32,000 nucleotides of DNA from a cyanobacterium endosymbiont of Rhopalodia gibberula (GCF_003574135.1 NZ_AP018341.1:1865740-1897739), one strand, 5' to 3'. Shown: positions 1-32,000, numbered from the stretch's first letter. Notes: generated by a model not told the origin, from the letters alone. Translations and numbers: made by a program.

Positions 1-32
1 CAACAGTCATTGGAATAAACTCAATAGATTTC

Positions 33-236
33 ATGAGTAATTTACCTCAATCCCCTCAACCTACTGACATGCCATCTTTATCTCCTAATGCTACTCCTAG
101 TGACACATCATCAAGTTACGTCAGACTGGCAATGCGTAACATGGTTCGTAAAAGAGGAACTTCCATTAAGCACTTTGTAGTAACAACGGTAGGCTTATTA
201 GGATTTCTTATTAGCATTTCCTATTTAACTCGTTAA
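33..236 (+). CDS. small membrane protein, DUF3285-like cyanobacterial conserved hypothetical
   Basis: 67-aa ORF. S/T/P-rich N-terminus, then the basic stretch YVRLAMRNMVRKRGTS and a single C-terminal TM helix. It lies immediately upstream of ybeY. The family name is from memory. Confidence 0.5.
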   Translation: MSNLPQSPQPTDMPSLSPNATPSDTSSSYVRLAMRNMVRKRGTSIKHFVVTTVGLLGFLISISYLTR

Positions 237-249
237 AATCGAGGGTATC

Positions 250-786
250 ATGGCACCTTCTCCCGTAAAAACCTTAACTGTTGACCTTTATCTTCAGGAT
301 GTTTTTAACTGCGAAGCATCAAATGATTCAGATATCTCTGACATTATTACAGCAACTTGGCAACAGTGGATTCAAACTTGGTTAGAAGAACTACACTCAA
401 TAATTACTATATCCGGGGCTTACGAACTGAGTCTAAGGTTAACCAGCGATTACGAAATACAAACTTTGAATAACCAATATCGTCATAAAAACCAACCCAC
501 AGATGTCTTAGCGTTTGCCGCTCTTGAAGTTAAAGTTCCTCAATCATCGGAAAAAATAAGTGCTGATGAATCTCTATATTTAGGCGATATTATCATTTCG
601 GTGGATACAGCTAAACAACAGGCACGACAAAACCATCATTCTCTAACTGTAGAATTAGCATGGTTAGTGGCTCATGGACTTCTACACCTTTTAGGTTGGG
701 ATCATCCAGATGAAGAAAGTTTACTACAGATGCTTGCACAACAAGAAACTTTGTTAAAGCTTGTGGGCCTTCAGCCAAATAATTGA
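250..786 (+). CDS. ybeY: rRNA maturation endoribonuclease YbeY
   Basis: 178 aa. Zinc-binding motif HGLLHLLGWDH near the C-terminus. Size is typical for YbeY. Confidence 0.9.
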   Translation: MAPSPVKTLTVDLYLQDVFNCEASNDSDISDIITATWQQWIQTWLEELHSIITISGAYELSLRLTSDYEIQTLNNQYRHKNQPTDVLAFAALEVKVPQSSEKISADESLYLGDIIISVDTAKQQARQNHHSLTVELAWLVAHGLLHLLGWDHPDEESLLQMLAQQETLLKLVGLQPNN

Positions 787-866
787 TATATTGAATTAAT
801 TTAATTGTTTCAATTCCACAGTATTTCCAATAAGATTTAACAGTTCCATCGTAAAATTTTAAGATA

Positions 867-1394
867 ATGAAAACAAATTTACACTTGAACCAATCCTCCT
901 GTACTCAGTTAGTTGCCCCTTCCCCATTGCCTTCTGGTGTTTCCTTCAGGAGCTATCCTAGTCTTCAGACAAGCTCAACTGCAGAATTAAAATTACATTC
1001 CCAACGGCAATTGGCTTGGCAAATTGCCCCTAACTTGTTTTTAAGTTTTAAATATGCTTGGGCTGGCATTTGTTACGCTTTTGAGACTCAACGTAATTTC
1101 CGTATTCATACCGCCATGACCGTGATTGCCATTAGCCTAGGACTATTTTTACAAGTCACTGGTGTAGCCTTGGCTATTGTTTCTCTAACCTGCGCTCTCG
1201 TAATGGTTTTAGAGTTATTGAATACTGCTTTAGAATCGGTGGTTGATCTAACCGTAGGTCAGTCTTACCATATGCTAGCTAAAATTGCTAAAGATTGTGC
1301 TGCCGGAGCGGTAATGGTTGGGGCAATGGCAGCGGTTTTAGTCGCCAGTTTTATTTTGTTACCCTCTTTGGTTCCTTTTCTTCTTACCCTGTAA
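867..1394 (+). CDS. dgkA: diacylglycerol kinase (DgkA family) with N-terminal extension
   Basis: Three TM helices. DgkA motif ELLNTALESVVD and AKDCAAGAV. There is no alternative start before the conserved core. Confidence 0.85.
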   Translation: MKTNLHLNQSSCTQLVAPSPLPSGVSFRSYPSLQTSSTAELKLHSQRQLAWQIAPNLFLSFKYAWAGICYAFETQRNFRIHTAMTVIAISLGLFLQVTGVALAIVSLTCALVMVLELLNTALESVVDLTVGQSYHMLAKIAKDCAAGAVMVGAMAAVLVASFILLPSLVPFLLTL

Positions 1395-1470
1395 GACTTT
1401 GCGTTAAGGTCAAAGACAGATTTTGGGCGGAGACTAACTGCTCCCCCAGTAAGCCTCAAGGAGACAAGTA

Positions 1471-2100
1471 TTGATTCTTATTATCGATAATTACGACAGT
1501 TTTACTTACAATTTGGTGCAGTATTTAGGAGAACTGGGTGCCGAACTTCCCGTGGCTTTAGATATCCAAGTTTACCGTAATGATCAAATTACTCTTGATA
1601 AGATTCGTTATCTACAACCGAATGGAGTTGTGATTTCTCCAGGGCCAGGCCGTCCTGATGATGCAGGAATATCCCTCGCGTTAATTGAACAGTTAGGACC
1701 AACTCTACCCATTTTAGGGGTCTGTTTAGGTCATCAAAGTCTTGGTCAAGTTTATGGAGGACAGGTTGTAGCCGCACCTCTGTCAATGCACGGCAAAACC
1801 TCTCAGATCTATCATAGGGGAGTCGGAGTGTTTACAGGTTTAGAGAATCCTTTTAGTGCCACTCGTTATCATAGTTTAGTGGTAGATCGAGATAGCTTAC
1901 CACAAGTATTTGAAATAACTGCTTGGGTTGAAGACGGTACCATTATGGGGCTTCAACATAAAGGTTATCCTAACCTTCAAGGGGTGCAATTCCACCCGGA
2001 AAGTATCTTAACTCCATCAGGAAAACAACTTTTACGTAATTTTTTGGTCAGTTTGGAAAATTTTGACAATCAAGAAATCAAGAACGGGAAAATGTCTTAA
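1471..2100 (+). CDS. trpG: anthranilate/aminodeoxychorismate synthase glutamine amidotransferase component II
   Basis: N-terminus [22 protein letters not shown]. Catalytic GVCLGHQ and QFHPES. TTG start is preceded by AAGGAG 7 nt upstream. Confidence 0.9.
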
Positions 2101-2162
2101 CCGTTTTGGTAACTGCTATAAATTCCAAAAGGAATAAGTTAATCAAATAAGTAATAGATAAA

Positions 2163-2221
2163 GTAGGGTGTTAACCAAAAACGAGTTTTTATAAGTCCAA
2201 GAACTTTTAGATTCACCCTAC
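2163..2221. repeat. 8-bp inverted arms GTAGGGTG / CACCCTAC around an AT-rich 43-nt spacer
   Basis: gtagggtg at 2163-2170 and its exact reverse complement caccctac at 2214-2221, about 60 nt after the trpG stop. The same GTAGGGTG end is seen at 5186. Confidence 0.35.
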
Positions 2222-4015
2222 CTACTATGCTTGACTAACAATTAAATCTTAGAATAAGTTTTAAGATTTAATTTGTATTAAAATTTATAGCTACACTTCA
2301 ACAATTTTTTCTCTTCTTAAGGAATAGGATTTATTCTAAAAACCAGTTTTATAAAAAAATGTTTAATTATTATCTTTTTATAGAGATAATCTTATAGAAG
2401 ATTACTAATATTTTTTAAACTTTAAACTTGAGATTTAATTTCTTTTACATCACTAGGTTTCTCTCTAGGTTTCTCTATTGTAGGTAAGTACAATAATTTT
2501 AAAAAACTTTTATATTTAGTTTTTAACAGTTGGTTATCTTGCTTTTAATACTGACATTACTTCTCAATCTTAATTTTTAGTTAAATTATTAATATTAATA
2601 TCTTCAAGAAGATAATATTGTCTTTTAATTCCTATAAGTAGTGGTCTATTTTGTTTTTAATACGCTCAGTTAACCTTCTTTATAACTTCATAATGGCGTA
2701 TTTTAGTTTCAGTATCTTTTCTCTTAATCAAAATAAAAAGAAGCAGTATATTTTAAATAAATTTGCCAAATTTTTGTGGATTTATAAAATTTAGTAGCAG
2801 ATTCTCAAATAAATTCTAATAAATCTCTTTTTTAAGAGTTATAAGTATATAAATTAGAAAGCCCGTTTGATAAATTTTTGCTGAAGTCAAAATTCTCATT
2901 AAAATAATTATTAAATATATTGTCAAACTCCTAATTTTTATCTTTTCTTTTTGTACTAATTACTCATATAAATTGAAGATTATTATAAAAACTTATAGTA
3001 TCTTATTGTTTTATATTACCTATTTCTTCTGTGCTTAAAACTTACTCAAATAGATTCTGAATCTCATCATAAAGTTTAATCAGTTTTTTAAAACTTTAGT
3101 ATTATTTTTCAAATACTTAAGTAACAATAGAATATCTTTTTTCAAGTAACTTCTTTGATTCTTTATGTTTATGTTCTCTTCATTGAAGAAGCTATGTTCA
3201 TGATAAAAAGAAAGTTTTAAAAAATTTTTTTGAGGTTGGTTATTATTAATAATATGTATGATTTTAGAAAAAATTATACACTCTTTCTGAATCCTAACTA
3301 ATTTATTATACGTATTGATGTTAAGGCAACTGTAATGTTAATACCTATCTAAATTTCAGTACTTACCAATTAACTAGGTGAATTTAAATAATTTTAATAT
3401 ATAAAAATAATTGGTAATAACCGTAGCATAAATATTATACTTGAATTTTTTAAAAAAAATTATGTTTACTATTGAACGTTTATTTGAAGTTTTTAATTAA
3501 AAGTTCTTGCTGAAGATAGATTTATTATTAAATAATATACGTATTAATGATAAGAGTTATTTAATGAATTTATAATAAATTCTGTTGTTAATTTAGAATA
3601 TTTTTTGGATAAAAATTAACTATTTATTAAATGTTAATAACAGTATTTATTTTCAATTAATTATGATAAGTAAGCAGAACAAACAGTCTAGTTAAACTCT
3701 CGTTCTAAGATTATTAAAGTTAATTAAGCGATTAGCTTATCTTCCAATCAATTGAGTTTTATGATCGACCAGCAATGATTATTCCTTGACTATTGGAAGA
3801 TCTTGAACATACTCTTCCTGTAGCTACTCGTTGGATCGAATATCCCGACCCTCTACCAATGCTGATGTCTAATACAATCAAGGAAAGACGATGTTAATTA
3901 GTAAATTTGCCGGAATTAAAAAATACAATCCCGATTTTCGAAAAAAATGTAAAAATTGAAACAATAGATACCAACTCTAATCACCAAAACTTAGAAATAG
4001 AGAAAAAATAGCATT

Positions 4016-4422
4016 TTAGGAGATACTTTTCGATATTTTTAGAGACTCTTCATTCAGAGAAAATAAAGGAGGAGTTTGATATAGATTTATCATTTTGTAG
4101 AGTAGACGAGAATTCGGTGATATATAACCATTTAAGATAGTTTTATATCTGTTGACCCTAAGGTCTAGGAATTTATCAGGAACAGTCCTAAAAAGATCAT
4201 GGGAGCAGTTTATCGATGATAGTCAGGAGTCATCCCATAAGTGGGTCAAGCTTCCCTGAAAGAAAAATAAATAATGTCAGATTTAGGTAACAAATTGAAA
4301 CCCTGTATTTCCTCACCGCAGTAAAATTGTCGCACAATTCGATCGTGACAAAGGTCGTAAAGATTGTCCACCGTCAAGACTTCAATCCAGTCATCACTTG
4401 AGCTATGTTGTAGGAACATCAT
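4016..4422 (-). pseudogene. frameshifted small gene of unknown family
   Basis: ATG-started 58-codon ORF at 4246..4422 (MMFLQHSSSDDWIEVLTVDNLYDLCHDRIVRQFYCGEEIQGFNLLPKSDIIYFSFREA). A 68-codon stop-free stretch with no start codon follows in another frame at 4019..4222 (LSSINCSHDLFRTVPDKFLDLRVNRYKTILNGYISPNSRLLYKMINLYQTPPLFSLNEESLKISKSIS). The region is GC-richer than the surrounding desert. Confidence 0.35.
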
Positions 4423-4555
4423 TTTTTTCGTTACTATTCCCTGACAATTTCAGTGCACACACATACCCAAGATAGTAAGTTAAACTATATACAATTTTGC
4501 AAAATAAAGCTGAAACTGTTAAGAATTAAGAGATAGTCTCCTTAAAAATATTAGC

Positions 4556-5122
4556 GTGAAAAATATTAACGTGTCCTTCAACTTTCCGTTAACCTTTCGT
4601 ATTTCTTCGCTTATCCGTATCACTTTAGTTAGTCTTTATTTTTCCCTGACTCTTCCCCTTCCCTTCCTTGTAGACGTTACATCCGTTTCTATTCCTCCTT
4701 TTATGTTATGGACAGGAATCGTCATGGGCTTCATAGTTTTAGTAGGAGCTTTAAGTGAACGGGTTATTGTGGATGAGGATACTATAAAAGTGACTTATCC
4801 TAGTTGGGTTCCCTCTTTTCTCTGTAAAGGATGGTCTTTGCCTTGGTCAGAAATTAAAGATTTAAGATTGCGCACTACTGGACAGGGGGGGCTTGTTTAC
4901 TATTTTGTTTCTCGTGAGGCTCAAACAGCGTATTTATTACCGATGCGAATCGCTGGATTTTCCCGTTTGGTAAATATTGTTACCGAAAAAACAGAAATTG
5001 ATACCACTGATATTCGTCCCTTACCTCAACCTTGGATGTATTTAGTTTTATTAGTATTAACTTTATTTTTAATAATAGTAGATGGCTGGACTATCACTAC
5101 TGCAATAGGTATGGGACGCTAG
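4556..5122 (+). CDS. conserved hypothetical membrane protein
   Basis: 188-aa ORF with GTG start. Two N-terminal TM helices and one C-terminal TM helix flank a soluble middle domain. Codon composition is gene-like. No family recognised. Confidence 0.6.
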   Translation: MKNINVSFNFPLTFRISSLIRITLVSLYFSLTLPLPFLVDVTSVSIPPFMLWTGIVMGFIVLVGALSERVIVDEDTIKVTYPSWVPSFLCKGWSLPWSEIKDLRLRTTGQGGLVYYFVSREAQTAYLLPMRIAGFSRLVNIVTEKTEIDTTDIRPLPQPWMYLVLLVLTLFLIIVDGWTITTAIGMGR

Positions 5123-5185
5123 AGAAACTAAAGTTTCTTGGGTGATTCTTCCCCTTTTTTCTACCGTAACTCACCAAAATGGTTT

Positions 5186-5219
5186 GTAGGGTGTGTCGCG
5201 TTGCGCTCATACATCCTAT
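5186..5219. repeat. eroded palindromic element (GTAGGGTGTGTCGCG arm plus decayed partner)
   Basis: The left arm is gtagggtgtgtcgcg. The expected right arm cgcgacacaccctac is recognisable as cgc..atacatcctat. In the 11-nt block I could align, every mismatch is a C-to-T change. Confidence 0.4.
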
Positions 5220-5819
5220 AGTTCTTCTAAGATTTACTTAATAAAAAGTTCTTTATTTTTTGAGAAAACATCTCCCATATGAACTACAGGGTAGGAAGAT
5301 TAGGTCTTATAAACTATATTATTTTTTAGTCTCATTTACAGGAATATAAATAGTTGCAGATAAATAAACAACCCTATATTAAAAACTTTTAAAAAAGCAT
5401 GTAAGTTTTCAAATTTTACTAAAGTAAAAATACTTTTTTAATAAAAGGCTTAAATAAAGTTCAGAACTAATAGAAAGATTAGTGAGTGTAAGTTTGGTAC
5501 TAATTTTGAATATACTTAGACAATATTTAGACTTTTCTCTTTAATTATTAGTCAATGAACTTACTATATTTTGTAATCCTTAACAAGAAATATTTCTACT
5601 TTTAAACTATTTTTTTTGAGTAAAATTTAATAGTTTATATTACTGCGATTACCAACTTATATTCGTATTTTTATAACCAAGTAAGTTTCAATAACTGTAA
5701 AATATAAAAGTAGTTTAAAAAGAGCAATCACTAGATATTAGTTTGTCTAAAAGTCTATCAAATACAATTATAAAAGTAAAAACTATCAAAGTTAACTTGT
5801 GTTCACAAATTACTCTAAA

Positions 5820-6640
5820 ATGAGAATGAAAACAGAAACCTTCTGTTTAGATCTAAGGGGCTGAAAAGTTAAAGAAAAATAGGTTAAACGATTAGAAGAT
5901 GAAATTTTAAAAACAATTTATATATGGATAATTTAAGGAATTAAATGATTTGGTTTTAACAAATAAAAAAAAGAAAAAATAGAAGAAAAAAATATAATAG
6001 TGGAGGATTATCTAGAATTTAAAAAAGAGAATAAATTAAACTAACTTTTAAATTAAATAAGTTCGCGATTTTTTTTAAAATGGTAAGAAATAGAAATAAA
6101 GAAAAGTGAGTATTATAATTAATAATCTACAAAAAGAGAAGCTAAAAAAGAAGATTAGAAGATATTGAGTTATTCAAAAAAAATAAAAGTATAAAGTTAA
6201 AATACTTAGATGAAGCAGGTTTATATTTATAAAACACAGTAATTTGTACTTATATAAAAATTAGGAAATAGAAAATGATTCCATAGAGTTAAATAGAATT
6301 AAAATTTGATCCAAAAATTGTAAAAATTTAAAGTTTGTTTTGTGAGAAAAGCTCTATTTTATTCAAGAAAACTTGTGAGCTATCTGAATATTATCTTAAC
6401 CATACTTAAACAAAATTTTTACAGATAAATTCGTAAAAATTACTAATATAATTGGAAATTATTAATCAATAAAATCAGTAAATATATCTTTTTAAACTTA
6501 TATTTAATTTGATTTCTACTAATAAATTAAATACTTTTTATTTCTCGTTTCTGTAAATATAAGTGAGTTAATTTTAGAAATCTAGCGCTAAAGAGAATTA
6601 GTTGACTGACCATTCTTTTCTAGAAGTGTCTTCGTTAGTG
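5820..6640 (+). mobile_element. fossil IS630-family (ISY100-like) transposase gene, heavily eroded
   Basis: Collinear remnants across frameshifts and stops. MKTETFCLDLRG*KV at 5826-5870 matches MSYSLDLRKKV. KTIYIWI at 5910-5930 matches ASIYRWL. KYLDEAGLYL at 6200-6229 matches FIDESGF (first D of the DDE triad). IIGNY*SIKS at 6448-6477 matches IMDNAPIHRK. STNKLNTF at 6515-6538 matches SPDLNDIE. Spacing agrees with a transposase of about 280 aa. Confidence 0.6.
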
Positions 6641-6856
6641 ATTACTTCTGATTTAGCTTTATAAAAACTATAAATTACCTTATCTCCGGCAAAATTATTG
6701 TATTTTTAAGGGGTATTTTAAATAATTTTAACTTTCAACAATGCGATCACTTCTCTCAATAAGTAGCCTCAGCTTTAAACACTGGGTATTACTTTTTACT
6801 AGGGGTTTATCTCAAAAAATGATTGAGGTTCTTGAAGTAGCTTCTAATTATTTATG

Positions 6857-7222
6857 AGGGTTAACAGCCGCTTTTATTTTAAACATTCTCAATTATCTTA
6901 ATTGGCGTTCTGATAGTAATTTTGATGTCAGTTTGTTTGAACACTGCATTATCTATAATCGTGAGCTGAACTTTATTGAAATGGGTTTATTTTGTCAGTG
7001 ATCATATCAGGCTTACTTAGAAAAAGCTAATTTAACCAAAAATATCATTGATAAAGAATGCATCCTCACCGAAAATTGTCAAATTTATTTTAAGTGGTCA
7101 GAGAAATTGTATATGGAGCTATGCCCTCTATCAATTAATTCATTAAACCAGTCAATAATAATCATTCTTGCCAACCGTTCTGAATCGTTTCTTTATTCTA
7201 GTCAATGCAATCTGATCTTTTA
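6857..7222 (+). pseudogene. possible eroded gene (pentapeptide-repeat-like?) with one internal TGA
   Basis: About 120 codons are open apart from one stop: ...WRSDSNFDVSLFEHCIIYNRELNFIEMGLFCQ*SYQAYLEKANLTKNIIDKECILTENCQIYFKWSEKL... There is a weak 5-residue periodicity with hydrophobic centres (AYLEK ANLTK NIIDK ECILT). Confidence 0.25.
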
Positions 7223-7577
7223 AGCAAATTACAAACCCCTGCCCGGAGATGGACACGAGATCTCATCAGATCAGAGGACAAATTAGCTTATCTTTTCCTT
7301 AAGTCTTGATTTCACAACCTGGACAAGCTCTATACACAAAATTTTCCTATAAATATCTATTGCTAAAACCTTATTTAGGTTGACAAAAAATAGCGATTTT
7401 CTCAAAAAGAGACAATGATACTTGTTGCCATCGGAACTCTCACTAATAAAAGTTAATGATGATTACCATAGAAATTAGCTAAATTAAACTTGAAAAACCA
7501 TTAAAGTTAATCTATGATTTGAGTAGGTTACTTAATACTTCAGCAGACTTAAAATCTCGCACTAGAGGAAACGCCCA

Positions 7578-8507
7578 TTGATTCAAGCCACCCTACATCA
7601 GTTAAAAGTCTTTGAGACTATGGCCCGTCATGGGAGTTTTACCCGTGCAGCAGAAGAATTGTTAATTACTCAACCTACAGTATCAAGTCAAATTAAACAA
7701 CTAACAAAAGTCATTGGTCTACCGTTGTTTGAACAAATTGGCAAACGTCTTTATCTAACTGAAGCCGGAAAAGAATTACTTCAAACATGTCAGGAGATCT
7801 TTGGAAGGTTAGAAAATTTTGAGATGAAAGTAGCGGACTTAAAAGGAACCCGACAAGGACAATTAAGATTAGCAATTATTACCACAGCAAAATATTTTAT
7901 TCCTCGAATTTTAGGTACATTTTGCCAACAATATCCCGGCATTGATATCTCCTTAAATGTCACCAATCATCAACATATCCAGGAACGTATGATGGAAAAC
8001 CGAGATGATTTGTATGTTGTAAGTGAACCTCCTGATGGCATGGGATTATCAACTCAACCTTTTCTTGATAATAATTTAGTAGTGATTGCCCCTAAAAACC
8101 ATCCATTAGCGGGAAAACAAAATATTCCTATCACCAATCTTGATGATGAAGTTTTCATCATGCGTGAATCAGGCTCAGGGACTCGACGGGCAATACAAAA
8201 GCTGTTCTATCAACATGGTTTATCTGTTGAAGTACGCCTAGAATTAGGAAGTAATGAGGCGATTAAACATGCGATCGCAGGTAACCTAGGGATTTCTATT
8301 CTTTCTCAACATACGCTTATTTCTGAGGGAAAGGATAGTGAACTAACTATACTTGATGTGGAACATTTTCCGATCAGACGTCGTTGGTATGTAGCATATT
8401 TAGAAGATAAACAACTATCAGTGGTAGCTCAAGCGTTTTTAGACTATCTACTTCAAGAGAACGCGAATTTTTCTGTCCCTCCTGTTAGTCTCCTAGCAAA
8501 AGCTTGA
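7578..8507 (+). CDS. LysR-family transcriptional regulator, CmpR/NdhR(CcmR)/CbbR-like
   Basis: N-terminus IQATLHQLKVFETMARHGSFTRAAEELLITQPTVSSQIKQLTK is near-identical in pattern to the cyanobacterial inorganic-carbon regulators. TTG start has GAGGA upstream. Full-length LysR substrate-binding domain. Confidence 0.85.
   Translation: MIQATLHQLKVFETMARHGSFTRAAEELLITQPTVSSQIKQLTKVIGLPLFEQIGKRLYLTEAGKELLQTCQEIFGRLENFEMKVADLKGTRQGQLRLAIITTAKYFIPRILGTFCQQYPGIDISLNVTNHQHIQERMMENRDDLYVVSEPPDGMGLSTQPFLDNNLVVIAPKNHPLAGKQNIPITNLDDEVFIMRESGSGTRRAIQKLFYQHGLSVEVRLELGSNEAIKHAIAGNLGISILSQHTLISEGKDSELTILDVEHFPIRRRWYVAYLEDKQLSVVAQAFLDYLLQENANFSVPPVSLLAKA
8271..8278. repeat. HIP1 octamer GCGATCGC
   Basis: The only intact copy I saw. 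Several one-off variants occur elsewhere, e.g. gcgatcac at 6742-6749 and 21520-21527. Confidence 0.8.
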
Positions 8508-10519
8508 GACTTAACGTAAAAATTGAGTTTCTACTAAACTTGTTATGTAAAAATTAAGCATATAAAGACTATAGTCTGATTATCAATAATAGGTGTAACA
8601 AAAGCTAACTCATTTAGATGGACAATGTTTTAGCTGGTTTTGTGTTTAAATTTAAATATACTAGTCCTAAGGTTTTTACTCGACTTACACATATAGCATC
8701 AAATACTCTACTCGGTTTAATCGATAAGATTCTAAATTTTTAAATACTTATCACTATCCATCATTAGATTTTAAATGAGATAGGAGTAGTTTTACTTATC
8801 GAAAAAATAGGTATAATATTTACTTTTATCTATTAAAATTAGACTATGAGAAAACTTCATCTAAATAATCAATTCTATTAAAGATTTATCTTGTACACAA
8901 AAATCAGTCTATCTCAGAATTAATCTTTATTAAGTTAAATATAATCAACATTTAAATAAATTTAAAGAATAGTTAAGTCTCTTAAAAGAAAAAGAGTATA
9001 TCTGGAAAAATTTTAAATAAAAATCATTGAAGCAATTTTAACTAGTGACATCATATAGTTTAATCTAGTTAAAGTAATGAAGTGAGTGCACAACAACTAG
9101 AAACAATGCTCAAAGATTTAGTGTAAAAATTACAAATAAAAAAACCTTAGATATTGAAAAAATTGGCAGTTACTAAAAACATCTTAATCGATAAATAATA
9201 AAATTGTTATGTAGTGTTAATGTATTTAGATACAAAGAGTGAGGGTAAGTTTACAGAAACAATAAAATATAAATTACTACTAAAATAGTTAAAAATATTA
9301 AAATAATTAGCTTTTAACTATATCAAATATATTTATATGTTTTGGTAAAAAGTATAATAATGTTGCATGTTAATTAACATAATAATCTAAATTATTAACA
9401 AATAAATATCATGAAATTAAACAGATTAACGCTAAGTCAGATAGCTATAAAAAACTTTTTAGTAAGTTAATAAAAATCTTTAAATATTAATGGTATAAAA
9501 CATATAATTTCTAAATTAGAAACTAAAATAAAGTAAAATTAAACAATATATGTTAAACATTAGTAGCCCTCTTGATATATACTAATCAACAGAATAATTA
9601 AGAAAATTATTTAAGATATCAAGAATGATATCAAGACCATTTAAATTGGCTAATTAATATCAAATATTTTATTTATGATACTTGTAAAATAGTAATACTT
9701 TCATCTTAATTTTGAAAAAATTATTACTTATTTTAGACAAGAAATAGTAAAGAATATTAATGGTAAAGCTAAGTTAATTGAAAGGAAGACTTATAGGATC
9801 ATAAATTTTGTATTTTTTTATACTAAAACTTTTTTACTTGATATTTTACTAATTATTTCTACATTATTATTTCAGTAAAACCAGAATTTATAATCAAAAA
9901 TAGTCAGTAATTTATACCTAATTAACAATAATCTAAAGTCTAAAAATCAGATTGCCTAAGAAGAAGAACTACTTGACGTAATCTTAAAAATTATTTATTT
10001 AACTCAATTACAAATTGTCAATTTTTTCCTAAGAGAAAACACTACTTTTTGGTTCTTTTAGATATAAAAACTGAACTGACTCAATAAAATTTAATTAAAT
10101 ATCCAAAATTAGATTTAATAAAGGTTAATTTTGGATAGATAAGTTAGCCAAATTCCATTAACCAACAGTTTTTATATCATGTAATTATTTCAGAATTAGC
10201 CATTAATTATCAACCAAATTAGTGTATAAATAAATTCATAGCCTTCCTAAACCAGAGAGTTTGTTTCTAAATTTAGAACAGGTTGCTTCTCTATCACTTC
10301 TAGGAGAAAAGGTTTTTGATCAACTCTCTATTAATCTCATCAATAAGTTAACTAATAATATTTAAATTGTTTTAATAAAAAAGCTAATATACTCACTTTA
10401 GTGACAATCCAATGTCAATAGTCAAAATAAATTTAGTTTATTTATTTTGACTGTTTTATAAAAACTTTATTTTTTTTATTTAAAATAAAAAATATTATTA
10501 CTAATAGTTATACTTTTTT

Positions 10520-11510
10520 TAAAAAAATAAAGTAGCCATAAATAAATTTAAACTCGTTCATGTCTTCAACTCATTAAACCTAAAGATAATGCCTATTCTA
10601 TAGTAATTCAACTACTTTATAAAAACCCAGTAATTGCTTGATAATCAAAAGTATAGTCAATAATTCTATCCCACAAAGAAGCAACAGAAATCTACTAATC
10701 ATCAGATTTGATTACTTCAAGTTAACAATTATTTATAGTTTCTTTGTATTTAGGTAAAGTAATGATATAAGATAAATAATAAACCCAATAAATTTGTACC
10801 AAGTATTGGTTTTCATTCAAAGTTAACTCAATTGTAAGAGAATTAATAGAAAAATAACCACAAGTTGCTAAAATCAAAATCGCCCCTGGTTTAAGTACTT
10901 CATAATACTTTTCAAGTAGTTTAGTTTTATCGGGCATATGTTCGCCACTTTCAAGGAACCAGACTAGGTCAAAATTATTATCCTAATAAGGGATATTTAA
11001 GGCATTAGTTACCTGAAAATTAACTGTAGATATTTTCTTGATAGTTAGCTAATTTTTAATTGAATTAGTGAACTTAAAATTTTTATCAAATTAATATAAA
11101 TTTCTGGACAAAACTTGATTATTTCTTCTAAATAAACAATGGCTTTATGTTAGCAACTTAGTCTAACTTGACAACGTACTTATTACTATCAAGTATAGTC
11201 ACTTTTTAGTATAGTATTCATATCTTTTTTATAAAAATTAATCTCTTCATAGAGAAGGTACAATTGTGATCAAATTTGCGCTTGATAATACCATGAACAA
11301 TAATCGTTCGATTTAATTTCTAAAGCTTTTCCTATGGTACTGTTTTCAACAATCATCAGAACAATGTTTTATAAATTGATTAATATAATAAAGCCCTCGA
11401 TTGTTTTATTTTAAAACAGACACAGTCTTGCTCGCATTACCCCATAATTCTTCGGTTGAACCTTTTGGTAGCCGACAACAGCCCTTCCATGATATCCGAG
11501 TTTTTCTAGC
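10520..11510 (-). pseudogene. gamma-tocopherol methyltransferase-like class I SAM methyltransferase, eroded
   Basis: The minus-strand frame reads FQVTNALNIPY*DNNFDLVWFLESGEHMPDKTKLLEKYYEVLKPGAILILATCG...LNENQYLVQIYWVYYLSYIITLPKYKETINNC*LEVIKSDD**ISVASLWDRIIDYTFDYQAITGFL*SS*ITIE*ALSLGLMS*RHERV*. This is collinear with the FD.VWS.ESGEHMP.K / LKPGG.L / YCLPYV.SLP.YE / WS.AVAPFWD.VI motifs of gamma-TMT. There are at least 9 in-frame stops. Confidence 0.75.
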
Positions 11511-11661
11511 CTCATACCGCGTTTAACCAAATCCAATAGTTATTAGTATAGATTTCATTGGAGTTTCAAGTGACTGACAGTTAATTTATGATTTATTTAT
11601 CAATAACCATATAAAAATTATATGTTGTTATTAAACACATACCAAACACGTATCGAATATT

Positions 11662-13255: not shown

Positions 13256-13642
13256 TCACCAACGCCAAACTTGTTGATATTGTTCAAACAAATTGGGTAA
13301 ATCACGACGAGATAATTTTTGAATTCCACTAAGTAATTTTGCCTCGGGAATACCCCTTTGGGCGATATCCTCTGCAATTGCATACACTTTCAATCCACTA
13401 TCAAGAGCTTGTTGTAAATCTTGATCAACTTTGGCTGGACAAGTTTGTTGCCAAGAACCTAATGTCAAACCATCATTTCCTTGTCCACTAACAGCATAGT
13501 TAACGGCACTGCCTCGTAACAAAATATCGACTTCGCCACCGGCTGTCTTTAAAACTTGAACTATCCAAATAGCCGGATCATCTTGTTCTTCAACGATACA
13601 ACGATAAGCTGATTCAATAATTTGTAATGCTTTCATAGTCAA
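13256..13642 (-). CDS. DsrE/DsrF/DsrH-like family protein (third gene of trio)
   Basis: 128 aa. LLRGSAVNYAV and C-terminal VWRW are typical of DsrE-superfamily proteins of unknown role in cyanobacteria and actinobacteria. Confidence 0.6.
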   Translation of the reverse strand: MTMKALQIIESAYRCIVEEQDDPAIWIVQVLKTAGGEVDILLRGSAVNYAVSGQGNDGLTLGSWQQTCPAKVDQDLQQALDSGLKVYAIAEDIAQRGIPEAKLLSGIQKLSRRDLPNLFEQYQQVWRW

Positions 13643-13710
13643 TACTCCTTAAAAATTTAGAATCCTTTTACTCCTTGCCTTACTAAAACTTGTTTTAAAT
13701 AGGTTTTAGC

Positions 13711-14121
13711 TTATCTTGTGCCGATAACTAACGTTGATGCGGATTCGGTAGCCCATTGCCAAAAATCTTTGGGTCCGCCGCGACGACATCCTTTGATCGC
13801 TTCTTGTACACCCCTTTCATCAACACAAAGACCACAATTAATCCAATCAAATCTACAGCCTTTGTCTTGTGCTTTTGCTTGCATCGCTGCCACCCAATCT
13901 TTAGTTAATGGATGATTTTCTTCCTCAAAGGTACGGCCATGAATACTATTAGCGTGAGGTCTCTGGTGAGAAAACGCTAAGGAAACTGCTCCTTCATAGG
14001 CAAAAACATTGACATTGTAGCCTTTGTCTAATGCTGCATCCATCAGCCGAAAAGCGGTGGTTGTTCTCGCTTGTTCAAATGGCGCATCCATTAAGAGAAA
14101 TGTAAGGGTTGTTGTACTCAT
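13711..14121 (-). CDS. DsrE family sulfur-relay-like protein
   Basis: I start it at the internal ATG (MSTTTLTFLLMDAPFEQ...) rather than at 14172. It carries INCGLCVDERG with conserved cysteines. 136 aa. Confidence 0.7.
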   Translation of the reverse strand: MSTTTLTFLLMDAPFEQARTTTAFRLMDAALDKGYNVNVFAYEGAVSLAFSHQRPHANSIHGRTFEEENHPLTKDWVAAMQAKAQDKGCRFDWINCGLCVDERGVQEAIKGCRRGGPKDFWQWATESASTLVIGTR

Positions 14122-14199
14122 TATTTTGTCAGTTACTAATAAACAGTGATTCAGTAGATAATTTCTGGTCATAGGCTATCGCCTGTCGACCCTCGATAT

Positions 14200-17143: not shown

Positions 17144-17154
17144 TGTGGTACAAT
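17144..17154 (+). promoter_or_regulatory. extended -10 promoter candidate (TGnTACAAT)
   Basis: tgtggtacaat, with TG at 17146-17147 and TACAAT at 17149-17154. It would give pmbA a leader of about 300 nt. Confidence 0.3.
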
Positions 17155-17462
17155 CACGCATAGCAAAAATACCCTGCTCACTGCAGCGTGGTTTATGCAA
17201 AAAGAGCATCTGGAAAAGTTAAAATTAGAAACCTCTAGTGGCGGAGAACATTCCTTAAACTGAAGAGCTAACCAATCTAGACAACTGATAACACTTCTTA
17301 TGGTTAGCTGCTACGAGAGCAGAGATACTTAAGCGGTATGAATGATTCAGGAACTCTTATACACAAGTTTGGGCAAATCTGCTTTCTGTGCGTGCGTGGA
17401 GTTATGTTAACTCTCGATACATTCTAAGATAGATGTATTAACAATCCTTGGTTATCCTCAAT

Positions 17463-18803: not shown

Positions 18804-19556
18804 TTAATTGGTTTTTACTATGAGAGATAATTTATACATAAAACACTGAATCGAATGAAGTAGAGATTACTCTCAGAATTAAAGTCAACGGGAAGATTGT
18901 AGGCCTTAGTCGAACTGAGTAACAGAACTTACTTCCTAAACATTCTATAATCGAAATGGTTAACGACTAACTTAAAAATATCTCTTAAATATTACATTAG
19001 AGAAATTGCAGTGTTTGGAATTGTTTTGTTTACCTTTTTGCTCAACTGATGGCCTATACCTAGTCACCTGAAAAAATTTCTCTTGGCTTAAAATCACAAG
19101 GTTAACTAACCTTGTTTTCTGCCATTTTCAAACAATTATTGCAGTCTTATATTGTTGGCATTTACTATTACTATCTCGGATAATTGTCAATTTTGTCGTA
19201 TTTTAATTTAGATATTAAGAATAATAACCATGTTTTTAAATCTCGTCTAACTCACGCTGATACGAGAAGAGTACTCATCTACAATGAAGGTGTTTGTCAT
19301 AGAATTTTATAGGTATGGATGTTTTATGACACCGCCTAATTCAGTATCACAACATTGATTATGATCTAAAACTTTGTACTGACCTTTTTTTGTATTGAAC
19401 CAATCTTAAGAAGATTAACAAAAATTTTAACAACTAGCAAACTGTTAAACGTTTGAACAATTTCCAAGTTAATGCTTTCAGAAAATTGATATTAAAATCT
19501 TATATGACTGTTTCAGTAGAATTGAGTTAAGGCTCTCCTAGACCTAACATGATAAA

Positions 19557-19703
19557 TTAGCAGCTAATAACTTCCAAAACTTTTTTTACGACTGTATCCT
19601 TTAACTCTAAAAACCAGATCTTTATCAAGACCAATTTGACGAAGTCTTGGAAAATCTGGGAAACAAGACTTTCAGCTTCTATTTGTTGTTTGTCATGGTT
19701 TTG
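19557..19703 (-). pseudogene. start-less gene fragment
   Basis: A 48-codon open stretch bounded by stops, with no start codon: QNHDKQQIEAESLVSQIFQDFVKLVLIKIWFLELKDTVVKKVLEVISC. It begins 38 nt downstream of the 19742..20074 gene on the same strand. Confidence 0.3.
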
Positions 19704-19741
19704 TCACGGCTAGTCTAGAAGGGCCAGAGTTAATCACCGGT

Positions 19742-21191: not shown

Positions 21192-22211
21192 TCATTTCAT
21201 TTGTTGTTTTTTCTCAGCTTTTAGATTTCGAATACTGGCGGACTCCAATTCGGCATCCATCAAAGTTTGACCAGTGGCGGCTAAGTAGACATCATCAAGA
21301 CTAGGACGAGATTGAGCTAAGCTGAAAATAGGTAGTCCTGACTCTATTAAAGATTGTTCAATTTGACTTAAACAATTACTTCCTATGGTCACCACAAGGT
21401 TAAGAGAATTGCCTTGGCAGTGATTAATTATCACCTCTTCAACAAAGGGTAAATCTTGAAGTAAAGTTTTGGCTTGTCGGGCCTCTTCGGCTGGAGAAAA
21501 TTCCCGGATTTTTAGGGTAACGCGATCACCACCTACTCGATTTTTTAACTGAGAAGGAGTTCCCTCAGCAATAACTTGCCCTTGATTTATAATGGCTAAG
21601 CGGTCAGCTAAGGCATCAATTTCTTCAAGATAATGGCTAGTAATTAAGATAGTTGTGCCAGCTTGTTGTAATTTCCGTAAGAATTCCCAAACAATAAACC
21701 TACTTTCTATATCTAGCCCTACGGTAGGTTCATCTAGTACCAATACCTCTGGTCGATGGAGCAAACCAGCTGCTAAATCTAGGCGTTTACGGATACCCCC
21801 TGAATACGTTCCAGTTTGGCGATCAGCGTAGGTTTCTAGGTCCAGCAAGCTGATTAATTCAGCAATACGATTTTTGGCTTTCTTTTGGGGAAGATGATAA
21901 AGGGCGGCTTGCAATTCTAATAATTCTCGTCCTGTCAATACTTGATCTAAGGCTACTTCTTGGGCTACATATCCTAAACGGCGACGGGCCGCTTTGGGGC
22001 GCTCAAGAACGGAAATTCCCGCTACTTCAATTTTACCACCATCAGGCTTGGACAAAGTACATAAACAGCGAATGGTAGTGGTTTTTCCCGCTCCATTAGG
22101 ACCTAATAAGCCGAAAATCTCCCCCGGTTGTACTTTAAAGGAGATGTCTTTAATCGCTTCAAGAGTACCATAATTTTTTTTGAGGGACTCAATAACAATG
22201 GCAGGGATCAT
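21192..22211 (-). CDS. ABC transporter ATP-binding protein (DrrA/ABC-2 subfamily)
   Basis: Walker A GLLGPNGAGKTT, signature YSGGIRKRL, Walker B LVLDEPTVGLD. I start it at the ATG at 22211 (MIPAIVIESLKKNYG), not at 22388. Confidence 0.9.
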   Translation of the reverse strand: MIPAIVIESLKKNYGTLEAIKDISFKVQPGEIFGLLGPNGAGKTTTIRCLCTLSKPDGGKIEVAGISVLERPKAARRRLGYVAQEVALDQVLTGRELLELQAALYHLPQKKAKNRIAELISLLDLETYADRQTGTYSGGIRKRLDLAAGLLHRPEVLVLDEPTVGLDIESRFIVWEFLRKLQQAGTTILITSHYLEEIDALADRLAIINQGQVIAEGTPSQLKNRVGGDRVTLKIREFSPAEEARQAKTLLQDLPFVEEVIINHCQGNSLNLVVTIGSNCLSQIEQSLIESGLPIFSLAQSRPSLDDVYLAATGQTLMDAELESASIRNLKAEKKQQMK

Positions 22212-22246
22212 AACCGATTTATAATTGGGAAGTAACGATACGAACA

Positions 22247-22298
22247 ACCTCATTACTTTCGCATGAGGTCTCCTTGGCTCAGTTCGATTCCGAACTGA
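22247..22298 (-). other. two adjacent hairpins in the ABC-ATPase leader
   Basis: A 7-bp stem acctcat / atgaggt at 22247-22269 and an 8-bp stem tcagttcg / cgaactga with a 4-nt loop at 22279-22298. Both lie 36-87 nt upstream of the ATG at 22211. Confidence 0.4.
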
Positions 22299-22624
22299 TG
22301 TCATCCTCGGTGTGCCATTTTTGAGCAACAGCCACACCTTAGGGAATATCTCCCGTAGGCGCAAATTCTGATAGTTATTGCCGTACAATAGATGACTTTA
22401 TTTAGTTGTTGTGAACCGATGTTTGATATCGATCCTTTTTTATTGTATTGGAAGTTTAGGAAATGTGGGGAGTACGAACAGAGATTGTAAATTATAGTCA
22501 GCAGATTATTTAATGGATGAACTGATTCCAAAGCAACCATAGGACGTCCAGTTATTTCTCTTCATTGAAATATTTAATTTTAAATTTATTTAAAATTAAA
22601 TCTAGAATTTAGAAAATAATGTTC

Positions 22625-22660
22625 TTAATCAACTGATTTTTTGAAAAATCAGTTGATTAA
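22625..22660. repeat. 36-nt near-perfect palindrome
   Basis: ttaatcaactgattttt tg aaaaatcagttgattaa. Two 17-nt arms that are exact reverse complements, separated by 2 nt. Confidence 0.9.
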
Positions 22661-23169
22661 AATTAATTGTAGGCAAAAGTTAGCCTTGTCCTTTTGAGAA
22701 ATTACATTTGTCCTCAGTCTTTTGTATTCTCTGAATAAGAATACTGATAACAGTCAAAAATTGACTAAATTAATCGAGGTAGCCAGTTTAAATTATGATT
22801 CAAGTTCCTCAACGACTTCAAGTGTTGAATTAACATCTAAAACTTCTATACGCTGAAATAAATTCTTCTCTTATGCATCAAATACAATAAGTTTCAGAAA
22901 TCATGGCGCTCAATCTTAATAACCTGGATTCTTCGGTCATCTTAACTCTGTTGTAGACAGGTATCGTATTCATAATTGTTGGAGTTACACACGATAAGTC
23001 AATCAATTCAATCGATCCATATCGGACTTAATATATTAATTACCAGAACAAAAAAGATCTCTTTAAGCGATCATTGGTTATTTTCCATACAATATGAAAA
23101 CCTGCCCCCCATTAGGGGGTAGTCTTGGAATTAGATTAAAAATTCCTAAGACTAAATCGATTCAGTCTA

Positions 23170-23549
23170 GTCCAAATTTTCCTTTATATACCCTAACGAT
23201 CCCTCAATATCTTTCCATTCAGTAAGACTAAGAAAGAGAACACACAAGCACAAACTAAACAAAGGACCGACGATAGTCACCTAAATAAGAATAGAGTAAT
23301 GGAATTAGACTTAATACCTTGAGGGCAATCAACTAAGCTATGCCCTAATTAATGAAGTAAGGCCGAACTAAATAGTAACAAAACAATTGATTAGCTAAGT
23401 TAACCATCCTAATCCAGGGATACTACTCGCCAACTCTTAGCTTATAAGACCTTGAGCATGAACAAGAGCGATCAAAATCACAATTAAAAGCCAAAACTAA
23501 GAGGAATCAAGATATATAAAGATTCCTAAACAAAGAGCCGATTTACCAT
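23170..23549 (-). pseudogene. eroded membrane-protein gene (family unknown)
   Basis: One minus-strand frame contains FWLLIVILIALVHAQGLIS (23440-23496) and VTIVGPLFSLCLCVLFLSLTEWKDIEGSLGYIKENLD (23170-23280), separated by several stops. Confidence 0.3.
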
Positions 23550-23815
23550 TTTTTTGTACAGATCTCAGGAGAGGTGAAGTTAGCTAGGGTCAGTAGATAA
23601 TTAAGGGAAGTCTTATTAGCTGCGAGCTCGCCGATAGATCATCTACAACAAGAATTTTCAGAGGGGTGTGAACTAATAGTTAAGTGCAAACTATAAGCTA
23701 CAGCACCTTAAATATAAACTACAGAACCTCTATGGTGGAAAGAAAATAATAAAACATTCATGGTCTTTACCCTGCTTACCCTCAAACCTTATCAAGAATA
23801 ACTTGTCAGCTTCTG

Positions 23816-24538: not shown

Positions 24539-25013
24539 TGCTTTTAAATCGTGTTCAACTGTAACCTATGTAGACTCTTTATGAGCAAGGCTTTTAGATA
24601 GAAGGTAAAAGGAGACACCGGATCTATATTTTCGATGGGATTTCACCAACACGCAGTGTCAACCTAAAACAACTGAGAGGAACAAATTTCTTCAAATTCT
24701 AAACCCGTTCTCAGTTATTAGCTGTTTTAGCACAAACTAATCGGACCACTAAATACTATCATATTGACAGTGATTGTTATCCTGACAAATTTGTACCTAA
24801 TGTTTTAACAGGATGGTTAGGAGAAAGATTTACTTGTCAATTCCCCAACAACATCCATTTTTTGGGGAGAGGGTTTGCCGAAAAGGGTATGACCCGTAGC
24901 TATTTTCGGTGTTTAAATTGCCTCTGAAATGGTGGTGAACTCTATTATTGTCAGGTATGGTTTAACCTCTTTCATCAATCCCCACTGAATAAATCAACAG
25001 CCAAGCAGATAAA

Positions 25014-30520: not shown

Positions 30521-31237
30521 GTAGTTTAGTTAGAAGAGATGGCTAATAATGGAAATTAATTTAAGAGGTTCAGAGATTTTTAACTAACTGCGGTCAGAGT
30601 CTAGCATTTCACTAGAAAGATTTGGCAAGAAGACAACTCTATGAAGAGTAAAAGGCAATTAGGATGGGTAACCGTATATTCAACTACTTTATCGACATAC
30701 AGAAGGATACCTAAGGTTACTTTAGGGTCCTCTTATGATTGATCGGCAAGACAAAGTATTTCTAAATCTTTTGACAAAAAATCTAGAAATAAAGACTCAA
30801 TTTAGATTAGACACATTTTCTAAATTACTCTATTATTTTAACGTAATTTTTACAGTAGGTTTTTTTTTGTCATAAAACAGTAAGATTTAACCACAGATCC
30901 TTAAATGAATATCATTATAATCAATAATTTTATCTTAAATACTTCTAAATAAACCCATGTTTTATTATCGATAATTTTGTTTACTCTTAAATTATTCTCC
31001 AAAAAACCAAATGATAATAATCAAGCATAGAATATTTAGTAAACTCAAGGATAATGACTTAAAGTTATGGAACAAGATAATAGGGATGATCGTTAAAACA
31101 TGAAAAAAAATCCAGTTAAATATTAGGAATATTAAAACTAAAATTAGTAATTTCATCGGTTGAAATAATTTAGATTTTAAGTTCTTGCTTAACTAACGTT
31201 AATTAACTTTTTTTATAGAAAAATAAAAGATAATCTT

Positions 31238-31744
31238 ATGATTTATATAATAATGGGTGTATCTGGTTCGGGAAAAACAACTATAGGAAAACAACTTAGC
31301 TATCATTTGGAATATCATTTTTATGATGCAGATGATTTTCATACACCAGAAAATATCCAAAAAATGAGTAAGGGAATTTCTCTTAATGACAAAGATCGCC
31401 AGCCCTGGTTACTATCTCTCAGTTACTTAATTAATAACCTACAAGAACACAAAAAAAATGCTATTATTGCCTGCTCATCTCTCAAGAAATCCTACAGACA
31501 ATTATTACAAGGTAATCATCAAGATCTAGTTTGGATTTATCTTAAAGGAAGTTTTGAACAAATTATGGAAAGACTTGACAAACGAAAAGAACATTTTATG
31601 AAAAGTCAGATGCTCAAGTCTCAATTTAAAGATCTAGAAGAACCAGAAAACGCGATTATTCTCGATATTAGTTCAACTACAGAAAAAATAATAAAACAGA
31701 TCTTATCTAAGATAATTTTCTCTGAAAAATTTAGTAAAAATTGA
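31238..31744 (+). CDS. gntK: gluconokinase
   Basis: P-loop GVSGSGKTTIG, FYDADDFH and ACSSLKKSYR. 168 aa. It is noticeably AT-richer than the other genes (32% GC on two sampled 60-nt lines). Confidence 0.85.
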   Translation: MIYIIMGVSGSGKTTIGKQLSYHLEYHFYDADDFHTPENIQKMSKGISLNDKDRQPWLLSLSYLINNLQEHKKNAIIACSSLKKSYRQLLQGNHQDLVWIYLKGSFEQIMERLDKRKEHFMKSQMLKSQFKDLEEPENAIILDISSTTEKIIKQILSKIIFSEKFSKN

Positions 31745-31835
31745 AAATTATTAGTCAAAAAAAAATTCTAATTGAGAAGTAAAATCATGATATTTAGGGT
31801 AAAGTATGAAATATAATCATTAATATAATTTCTGA

Positions 31836-31875
31836 TTAATTGTAGCAATTATTGATATTGCTACAATTAATTTTT
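31836..31875 (+). terminator. intrinsic terminator candidate downstream of gntK
   Basis: A 14-bp perfect stem ttaattgtagcaat / attgctacaattaa with a 7-nt loop (31836-31870), followed directly by TTTTT. Confidence 0.4.
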
Positions 31876-31913
31876 AATTATATAAGTAGCCAGCATAACG
31901 TTCCTTCTACCAA

Positions 31914-31936
31914 AGCTATCCCCGTCAGGGATAGCT
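31914..31936. repeat. 9-bp perfect inverted repeat agctatccc / gggatagct with a 5-nt loop
   Basis: Read directly from the sequence. No adjacent T-run on either strand, so function is unassigned. Confidence 0.5.
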
Positions 31937-32000
31937 ATATCGATTAATTTATTTAGCTTTTTTTCACAAAAATAAATGATAAACTATTGATAGCATTTGC

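Follow-up and report, generated by a model that had tools for sequence, protein, structure and literature searches.

Retained genes and AT-rich, probably gene-derived debris in 32 kb of the Rhopalodia gibberula endosymbiont chromosome

The stretch of DNA described here, referred to as the window, comprises 32,000 nucleotides (positions 1 to 32,000, counted from its first letter) of the chromosome of the cyanobacterial endosymbiont of Rhopalodia gibberula (NZ_AP018341.1:1865740-1897739), the R. gibberula spheroid body (RgSB), and the question concerns the eight AT-rich blocks that separate its genes. The initial annotation, made from the sequence alone, held that only half of the window is coding and that long AT-rich blocks free of open reading frames (ORFs) fill much of the rest. 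This was confirmed, since the ORF scan of the window gave a coding share of 52.0% (22 ORFs of at least 80 amino acids (aa), 16,650 bp in total), or 52.2% once the starts were corrected by orthologues and the 3′ end of one further gene, at 3-236, was included, and the eight blocks together occupy 12,861 bp (40.2% of the window) with no ORF of at least 80 aa inside. It is very probable that the window is a typical stretch of the RgSB chromosome and that the AT blocks are the debris of genes that have been decaying since host restriction. The collinear gene remnants, their excess of GC-to-AT differences and the low coding density of the whole clade thus support the initial proposal of a recently host-restricted cyanobacterium with eroded genes.

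Genes, blocks and relatives

The intact genes of the window belong to ordinary cyanobacterial families. They encode YbeY, diacylglycerol kinase, a class-I glutamine amidotransferase, a LysR regulator, a DUF790 protein, three DsrE/F/H-like proteins, a DUF2079 protein, PmbA/TldD, an ABC-2 transporter pair, 6-phosphogluconolactonase, HpsJ, a DUF502 protein, NusB, a SpoU methyltransferase, a DHH protein and gluconokinase. On the basis of orthologue alignments the start of PmbA was moved to 17463 and that of the ABC ATPase to 22211, positions which the block boundaries of the initial annotation had already implied.

Base composition follows the same division. The GC content of the intact genes, gntK excepted, is 0.33-0.425, and each of the eight blocks falls within the range 0.235-0.344. 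In the sliding profile GC stays at ~0.17-0.26 at 2.1-3.9, 5.2-6.7, 8.5-11, 14.5-15.3 and 30.7-31.2 kb and at 0.33-0.44 in the ORF-bearing stretches between these AT runs; the lowest 500-bp window (9251-9750) has a GC of 0.168, and the floor lies at about 0.17-0.20. Among 500-bp windows GC has a standard deviation of 0.070, where a binomial model would give 0.021, so the heterogeneity is well beyond chance. Hand counts given earlier for single lines (13.3% at 9301-9360, 15.0% at 2581-2640 and 51.7% at 21781-21840) were matched exactly.

The AT blocks give no sign of coding sequence, RNA genes or repeats. In each block stop codons are as dense as base composition predicts, whichever of the six frames is read, and the longest open stretch of each block lies within the distribution obtained from 200 shuffles. 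The tRNA scan found none in the blocks, Rfam gave no match there either at the gathering score or at E ≤ 0.1, and neither repeat families nor tandem arrays were found in them.

The DUF790 protein places the window next to other spheroid bodies. In species-representative genomes the DUF790 protein has identities of 89% to the spheroid body EcSB, 84% to Cyanobacterium sp. uoEpiScrs1 (the E. pelagica symbiont) and 90% to 'unicellular cyanobacterium SU2' (SU2 below), which is the closest free-living relative. Over 309 aa LysR shows 100% identity to an R. gibberula endosymbiont protein, and it is the only protein matched at 100%. Positions 1-22723 are collinear with the complete chromosomes of EcSB and the E. 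pelagica symbiont, and ~13.8-32 kb with the loci L085 and L087, the latter from a Logan assembly. The diatom spheroid bodies, which had been named as a parallel, are therefore the group to which the window itself belongs, as the LysR identity and the collinear chromosomes indicate.

Coding fractions based on called genes are 0.52 in the window, 0.57 in L087, 0.67 in the E. pelagica symbiont and 0.83-0.89 in the homologous loci of SU2 and Rippkaea PCC 8801. RgSB is described as a non-photosynthetic, nitrogen-fixing diatom endosymbiont with an obligate intracellular lifestyle, whose genome has 3,020,309 bp, 33.9% GC, 1,671 coding sequences, 286 annotated pseudogenes and 22 non-functional insertion sequence (IS) elements (Nakayama and Inagaki, 2017, PMC5638926). 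Further spheroid-body (diazoplast) genomes from rhopalodiacean diatoms are EtSB and those of the symbionts of R. gibba, E. adnata, 'E. clementina' and E. pelagica, and the clade is characterized by genomes of ~3 Mb, 33-35% GC, 0.58-0.68 genes per kb, hundreds of pseudogenes, dead IS elements only and high synteny (Abresch et al., 2024, PMC11131595, and 2026, bioRxiv 10.64898/2026.03.19.712447). Low coding density is thus genome-wide and common to the clade; the window is not an isolated low-coding island, the finding that the initial annotation had set against its own proposal, because the values for the other spheroid bodies and the published genome-wide gene counts are low as well.

Remnants of genes and insertion sequences

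Proteins encoded next to the genes for LysR, DUF790, PmbA and 6-phosphogluconolactonase in SU2, together with those from the corresponding Rippkaea PCC 8801 contexts, were searched against the window. Identified remnants cover 3,935 of the 12,861 block bases (31%) and are found in five of the eight blocks; they represent six collinear dead genes (ccmO, a 71-aa gene, egtD and genes for a SAM-dependent methyltransferase, a TPR protein and an M50 protease) and two dead transposases. Searches with proteins of Crocosphaera and Rippkaea relatives and synteny with SU2, both of which had been proposed as checks, recovered collinear remnants.

Block 1 (2101-4555; 2,455 bp, GC 0.255) carries two of them at its right end. 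The ccmO gene, for a beta-carboxysome assembly protein, is represented at 3775-3996 (+ strand) only by the C-terminal aa 187-266 of 270; the remnant is collinear and matches the SU2 protein in tblastn at 60% identity (E 2e-20), the latter being assigned as CcmO by NCBIfam NF053792 (374.8 bits, cut-off 270). The orthologue of a 71-aa gene of SU2 (4204-4449, − strand) is alignable end to end (tblastn, 53% identity, E 1e-20) and is interrupted by a premature in-frame stop at codon 59, past which homology goes on in the frame reading; EcSB retains aa 1-54. Either the gene died very recently or its truncated protein is functional. The remaining 2101-3774 (GC 0.216) is unreadable, and block 1 is partly alignable to EcSB, at 74%.

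Blocks 1 and 2 are separated by an intact gene for a 188-aa membrane protein with no family assignment (4556-5122, + strand), which has 82% aa identity to its SU2 orthologue and is also intact in EcSB and the E. pelagica symbiont. Block 2 (5123-7577; 2,455 bp, GC 0.261) holds a frameshifted remnant of egtD, the gene for L-histidine N-alpha-methyltransferase of the ergothioneine pathway (6344-7073, + strand), in which aa 61-304 of 344 are spread over several frames (tblastn E 2.5e-41, identity up to 69%; SU2 EgtD assigned by TIGR03438, 397 bits, cut-off 291). EcSB has other portions left, namely aa 3-88 and 222-261. The matching interval of SU2 is ~1.83 kb long and contains an intact egtD and a 68-aa ORF; this small ORF is overlapped by a weakly conserved stretch upstream of the LysR gene (7140-7374; tblastn E between 3.6e-4 and 3.6e-10, varying with strand and frame), where 78% DNA identity to SU2 extends into the LysR gene, and which is either a gene remnant or conserved 5′ regulatory DNA. 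Since block 2 is ~0.6 kb longer than the intact SU2 interval, something extra once lay there. The part at 5123-6343 is unreadable and purine-skewed, most strongly at 5750-6330 on the + strand (GC skew up to +0.37, AT skew up to +0.27), and this skewed stretch may be what is left of a coding region on the + strand directly upstream of the egtD remnant.

The CbbR-type LysR regulator gene that follows (7578-8507, + strand) is intact; its product contains the Pfam domains HTH_1 and LysR_substrate, and its best NCBIfam match is CbbR, below the cut-off. The protein is 86-87% identical to that of SU2 and is kept in all three spheroid bodies examined, with the nearby carboxysome gene ccmO dead, and close homologues carry the JGI annotation 'low CO2-responsive transcriptional regulator'. 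In the non-photosynthetic symbiont the regulator is presumably kept or re-purposed for other targets.

The largest number of remnants is found in block 3 (8508-11661; 3,154 bp, GC 0.235), which reads in order as an ISL3 remnant, unreadable DNA, a methyltransferase remnant and a TPR remnant. The dead ISL3-family transposase gene (8777-9484, + strand; aa 20-255 of 399, GC 0.20) matches the annotated ISL3 transposase gene of the Rippkaea PCC 8801 plasmid pP880101 (blastn, 67.6% identity, E 1e-21) and was recovered by tblastn in three collinear pieces (E 4e-14); its first ~215 bp lie within a high-scoring segment pair common to EcSB, and the insertion appears to be older than the RgSB/EcSB split. 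About 1 kb of unreadable DNA follows (9485-10529, GC 0.203), and positions 8990-10821 have no EcSB counterpart. The next remnant (10530-11027, − strand) is that of a SAM-dependent methyltransferase (Methyltransf_11; aa 122-287 of 292), matched by the SU2 ORF at 60% identity (tblastn E 8e-56) and by that of Crocosphaera XPORK-15E at 49% (E 5e-44), and the fragment itself matches Pfam PF08241 (E 2.2e-5); in EcSB aa 8-185 are left instead. A dead gene had been reported initially as gamma-TMT-like, and this methyltransferase remnant is real and consistent with that label. The TPR-repeat protein remnant (11060-11524, − strand; aa 72-287 of 297) lies directly upstream of the DUF790 gene, as in free-living relatives, and was identified with the SU2 protein, TPR by Pfam (tblastn E 1.7e-15), and by collinear matches from many Crocosphaera and Cyanothece loci. 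The order of methyltransferase and TPR genes is the same in SU2 and Crocosphaera XPORK-15E. In SU2 (locus L001, 7345-9050) genes for a TauD-family dioxygenase and a class II aldolase lie between the two and are absent from XPORK-15E and the spheroid bodies; a deletion of this pair in the symbiont was considered and rejected, as XPORK-15E also has the methyltransferase and TPR genes adjacent, and the pair is probably an SU2-specific insertion.

The remaining remnants lie in blocks 6 and 7. Stop-masked six-frame Pfam scans of four blocks (5, 6, 8, and 7 at 22389-23815) gave one match, to an IS982-type DDE domain in block 6 (18804-19741; 938 bp, GC 0.314). It corresponds to the last ~55 aa of an IS982-family transposase (~18848-19015, + strand), at positions 101-155 of 155 of Pfam PF13612 DDE_Tnp_1_3 (E 4.8e-5) and 190-240 of 243 of NCBIfam NF033520 (E 1.6e-4), and both scores are under the full-length cut-offs, as expected for a fragment. 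Initially an IS630-like dead gene had been proposed; no IS630-like remnant was found, and the detectable transposases are ISL3 and IS982. Part of the AT DNA is accordingly dead insertion sequence and not dead host genes, by which the claim that the blocks are eroded genes has to be narrowed. The interval from the 114-aa gene to PmbA measures 0.94 kb in the window and ~3.05 kb (GC 0.31) in the Logan assembly SRR28397362 (L087 14787-17841), where only ~270 bp aligns, inverted; the longer interval may keep more of the IS982 element or other lost genes.

Block 7 (22212-23815; 1,604 bp, GC 0.344) lies between the ABC ATPase and 6-phosphogluconolactonase genes, where SU2 has intact M50 protease and NADAR genes. 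The remnant of the former (Peptidase_M50, site-2 protease family; 22897-23559, − strand, ~aa 1-267 of 417) is collinear and on the expected strand, and was found by tblastn with the SU2 and PCC 8801 proteins (E 8e-8 to 5e-6) in pieces of up to 64% identity. The L087 spheroid-body assembly retains aa 309-415, and the E. pelagica symbiont has none of the gene. Neither the stop-masked Pfam scan of 22389-23815 nor a plasmid search gave a match. SU2 (locus L084, 6732-7911) also has intact IS605-type OrfB and Y1 transposase genes between those for NusB and DUF502.

No gene could be read in 2101-3774, 5123-6343 and 9485-10529, in blocks 4, 5 and 8 and in the remnant flanks of blocks 6 and 7. Block 4 (14521-15382; 862 bp, GC 0.238) gave no match to SurE, the neighbour predicted from PCC 8801, or to other context genes, even in a block-sized search space. 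The only match of block 4 in the plasmid searches, 127 bp at 75% (14730-14856), is to 'Candidatus Stammera capleta', likewise a reduced symbiont with extremely AT-rich DNA, and is taken as compositional convergence and not homology. Block 4 borders the DsrE/DsrF/DsrH-like genes (13256-14520, − strand), whose products, with 86-94% aa identity between SU2 and EcSB, are the best-conserved proteins measured in the region; this suggests a strongly selected function of the sulfur-relay or tRNA-thiolation type in the symbiont.

Blocks 5 and 8 are short and unreadable, and both lie between divergent genes: block 5 (16787-17462, GC 0.309) between those for DUF2079 and PmbA, and block 8 (30521-31237, GC 0.261) between that of the DHH family and gntK. 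The stop-masked scans matched no Pfam family in either block, stop-free fragments of blocks 5 and 7 and of the spacer 24703-24924 likewise had no Pfam match, and a plasmid search with block 8 found nothing. For such blocks above all it may be asked whether some of the AT DNA is maintained as functional non-coding sequence, i.e., expanded promoters or 5′ regions, small RNAs, or nucleoid-organising or insulating spacers. Block lengths are indeed similar across three or four lineages (676, ~570 and ~620 bp for block 5; 717, 697 and 753 bp for block 8), PCC 8801 has only 225 bp between its DUF2079 and PmbA genes, and the region upstream of the LysR gene is conserved to SU2, as described above. However, the identity of block 5 to EcSB (76%) equals the neutral block average of 76.7%, Rfam families were missing even at the relaxed threshold, the lengths of the large blocks differ among lineages by factors of 2 to 3.5, and the composition is that of demonstrably dead DNA, so that maintained function is considered improbable. 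The gntK gene beyond block 8 (31238-31744, + strand) has the lowest GC among the intact genes, 29.6% (not the 32% stated initially), with a GC of 0.22 at third codon positions (GC3), and its product passes the NCBIfam gluconokinase cut-off (175.6 vs 113.75 bits); the gene may be under weakened selection.

Divergence, deletion and the origin of the blocks

Comparison with SU2 separates the remnants from the intact genes. The remnants differ from their SU2 counterparts by 471 GC-to-AT and 229 AT-to-GC changes (2.06:1) at an identity of 70.8%, versus 630 and 545 (1.16:1) at 82.5% in the intact genes, and remnant GC is 0.27-0.39 against 0.36-0.45 in the SU2 orthologues. A three-genome alignment of the window, EcSB and the E. 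pelagica symbiont (MAFFT FFT mode), which covered six blocks and 10,525 block bases, gave window-EcSB identities of 91.7% for genes and 76.7% for blocks, that is Jukes-Cantor distances of 0.088 vs 0.279, a ratio of ~3.

The same alignment bears on deletion. As many as 2,739 of the 10,525 block bases (26%) are without counterpart in EcSB and 5,711 (54%) in the E. pelagica symbiont, compared with 27 gene bases. In the window, EcSB and the E. pelagica symbiont, respectively, the gap from the LysR to the DUF790 gene measures ~3.15, ~1.68 and ~1.10 kb and that from TrpG to the 188-aa gene ~2.46, ~1.96 and ~0.70 kb; the smallest spheroid-body genome has much shorter gaps. Different lineages hold different fragments of the same dead genes (methyltransferase, egtD, M50), of which the E. 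pelagica symbiont has none. Deletion is thus slow but ongoing, and not absent; the initial wording that the genes were never deleted was right about the slowness and too strong in view of the bases missing from relatives.

Could the blocks be products of assembly, i.e., chimeric joins or collapsed low-complexity sequence? Very AT-rich DNA is prone to coverage dropouts; however, the same gene order and AT gap positions recur in the independent assemblies of EcSB, the E. pelagica symbiont and the Logan data, block DNA aligns between these spheroid bodies at 72-78%, and the source is a closed, PCR-finished circular chromosome. Chimeric assembly, which had been raised at the outset as a case against erosion, is not borne out by this shared architecture, and an artefact is hardly conceivable.

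It is scarcely more probable that the blocks are AT-rich islands of foreign origin, such as prophages or plasmids, that entered horizontally and lodged between native genes. An AT content above that of the host is common in foreign DNA, two blocks carry transposase remnants, and block 2 exceeds its intact SU2 interval in length. Yet most identifiable remnants are native cyanobacterial genes in ancestral order and orientation, and the blocks are orthologous, alignable and placed at the same sites across the spheroid-body lineages. Phage and plasmid searches with several undecoded stretches returned nothing besides the ISL3 gene, whose plasmid match comes from a close relative, and the short AT-rich Stammera match; the deep-AT core of block 3 had no phage match. 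No flanking repeats or element borders were found, and the published genomes are without active mobile elements.

A narrower proposal is that the deepest-AT unreadable DNA is mostly the wreckage of an early IS burst, which rearranged the ancestral spheroid-body chromosome and then died out; this is regarded as possible but rather unlikely. Both transposase remnants lie at spheroid-body gene-order junctions relative to SU2, XPORK-15E or PCC 8801, ISL3 at the junction of the LysR and methyltransferase genes and IS982 at that of PmbA and the 110-aa gene, which suggests IS-associated rearrangement before the IS elements died. With two cases, and at least half of the blocks located at breakpoints anyway, the pattern is not statistically meaningful, and no IS remnant was seen at the other breakpoints in the window.

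The decay of genes after host restriction accounts for the remnants, and the rest of the block DNA is assigned to the same origin with less direct support. Several observations weigh against it. As much as 69% of block DNA matches no gene. Synteny predicted Raf1, glutaredoxin, peptidase S8, SurE, an NmrA-type epimerase and NADAR, none of which was matched even in block-sized search spaces, and RND-MFP, NDH-2, GST, GlgA and TopA, further predicted neighbours, were not detectable either. Three blocks (14521-15382, 16787-17462 and 30521-31237) have no remnant, and blocks 5 and 8 need not be dead genes, since they are divergent promoter regions whose length differs little among all the spheroid bodies examined. 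Finally, the ccmO C-terminus (GC 0.33) abuts DNA of GC 0.20 that is unrecognisable as the ccmO N-terminus, so the adjoining deep-AT DNA has a different, older or non-genic origin. Within 3500-3996 GC steps sharply from ~0.20 to ~0.33 at the 5′ edge of the remnant; the step, together with the unrecognisable site, indicates that the N-terminus was deleted, and the neighbouring DNA is older or of another origin. This implies that the blocks are mosaics of different ages. The claim that the blocks are eroded genes consequently stands for the 31% read in five of the eight blocks, and for the remainder, including the three short blocks, it is an inference: the unreadable 69% would have the same origin as the remnants and be older.

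The blocks had also been described as near-equilibrium, and here the evidence is divided. Orthologous deep-AT DNA has nearly equal GC in the window and EcSB (0.210/0.223, 0.232/0.232 and 0.225/0.241) despite ~0.28 substitutions per site, and a crude equilibrium GC calculated from the SU2 difference counts is at most ~0.245. Both agree with near-equilibrium without proving it, and the GC floor would then be the mutational equilibrium. Parsimony polarisation with the E. pelagica symbiont as outgroup gave an equilibrium GC of 0.42-0.49; this result was discarded as artefact-prone at 23-35% divergence under AT bias, and is attributed to parallel GC-to-AT changes that mimic AT-to-GC ones. It still counts against the description, for which the support is consistent but indirect.

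Taken as gene decay, the process may be pictured as follows. Host restriction would have relaxed selection on many genes, including carbon-fixation genes such as ccmO, as well as egtD, the SAM methyltransferase, TPR protein and M50 protease genes and the insertion sequences. Once inactivated, these would evolve neutrally under AT-biased mutation, from GC ~0.36-0.45 towards a floor near 0.20, and small and kilobase-scale deletions would clear the debris only gradually, in each symbiont lineage independently of the others. Purifying selection would hold those genes that are still required, and they would remain as coding islands of 33-43% GC amid AT debris. Relaxed selection together with drift is the likely cause of the decay.

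RgSB among reduced genomes

Mycobacterium leprae, Sodalis glossinidius, Serratia symbiotica and 'Nostoc azollae', each ~50% coding, are the classic cases of early-stage genome reduction. According to the model of this stage, coding density is close to its minimum and the pseudogene load close to its maximum, composition drifts towards AT, core genes are kept and deletion lags behind inactivation, all of which the window shares (McCutcheon and Moran, 2012, as cited in the spheroid-body papers). Low coding density, collinear pseudogenes, AT drift and unconstrained evolution of the debris are all observed here. The model also expects active, proliferating IS elements and frequent rearrangement, whereas spheroid bodies have dead IS elements only and syntenic chromosomes; the window contains two badly decayed transposase fragments and no intact one. 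This departure is already published and concerns the IS prediction, not the reductive status.

UCYN-A (the nitroplast) and Richelia are also nitrogen-fixing cyanobacterial symbionts with reduced genomes. At ~1.4 Mb UCYN-A is far more reduced and compact, and represents a later stage, after deletion of the debris. It serves as an outgroup in the published spheroid-body phylogeny. The other spheroid bodies are the same type of organism and show the same phenomenon, with no difference in kind.

As a discovery the architecture carries little weight, since low coding density and degraded intergenic remnants are published for RgSB and ~29 relatives, and the phenomenon is already known (Nakayama and Inagaki, 2017, and Abresch et al., 2024, 2026). 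The authors of the spheroid-body studies ascribe the non-coding DNA to highly degraded gene remnants (Abresch et al.). Added here are the identities of the genes that died in these 32 kb, the lineage-specific fragments and the threefold block-to-gene divergence, which do not appear in the published passages covered. A reading of the raw sequence alone had correctly diagnosed a host-restricted cyanobacterium, and synteny guided by SU2 makes a useful share of the block DNA (31%) legible, in which standard annotation shows nothing.

Fossils give the symbiosis an age of at least 34 My, and spheroid bodies are rare in still showing gene debris after so long. As an extension of current work rather than a new phenomenon, locus-by-locus comparisons among spheroid bodies could date the deaths of genes and measure rates of neutral substitution and deletion during the formation of an organelle.

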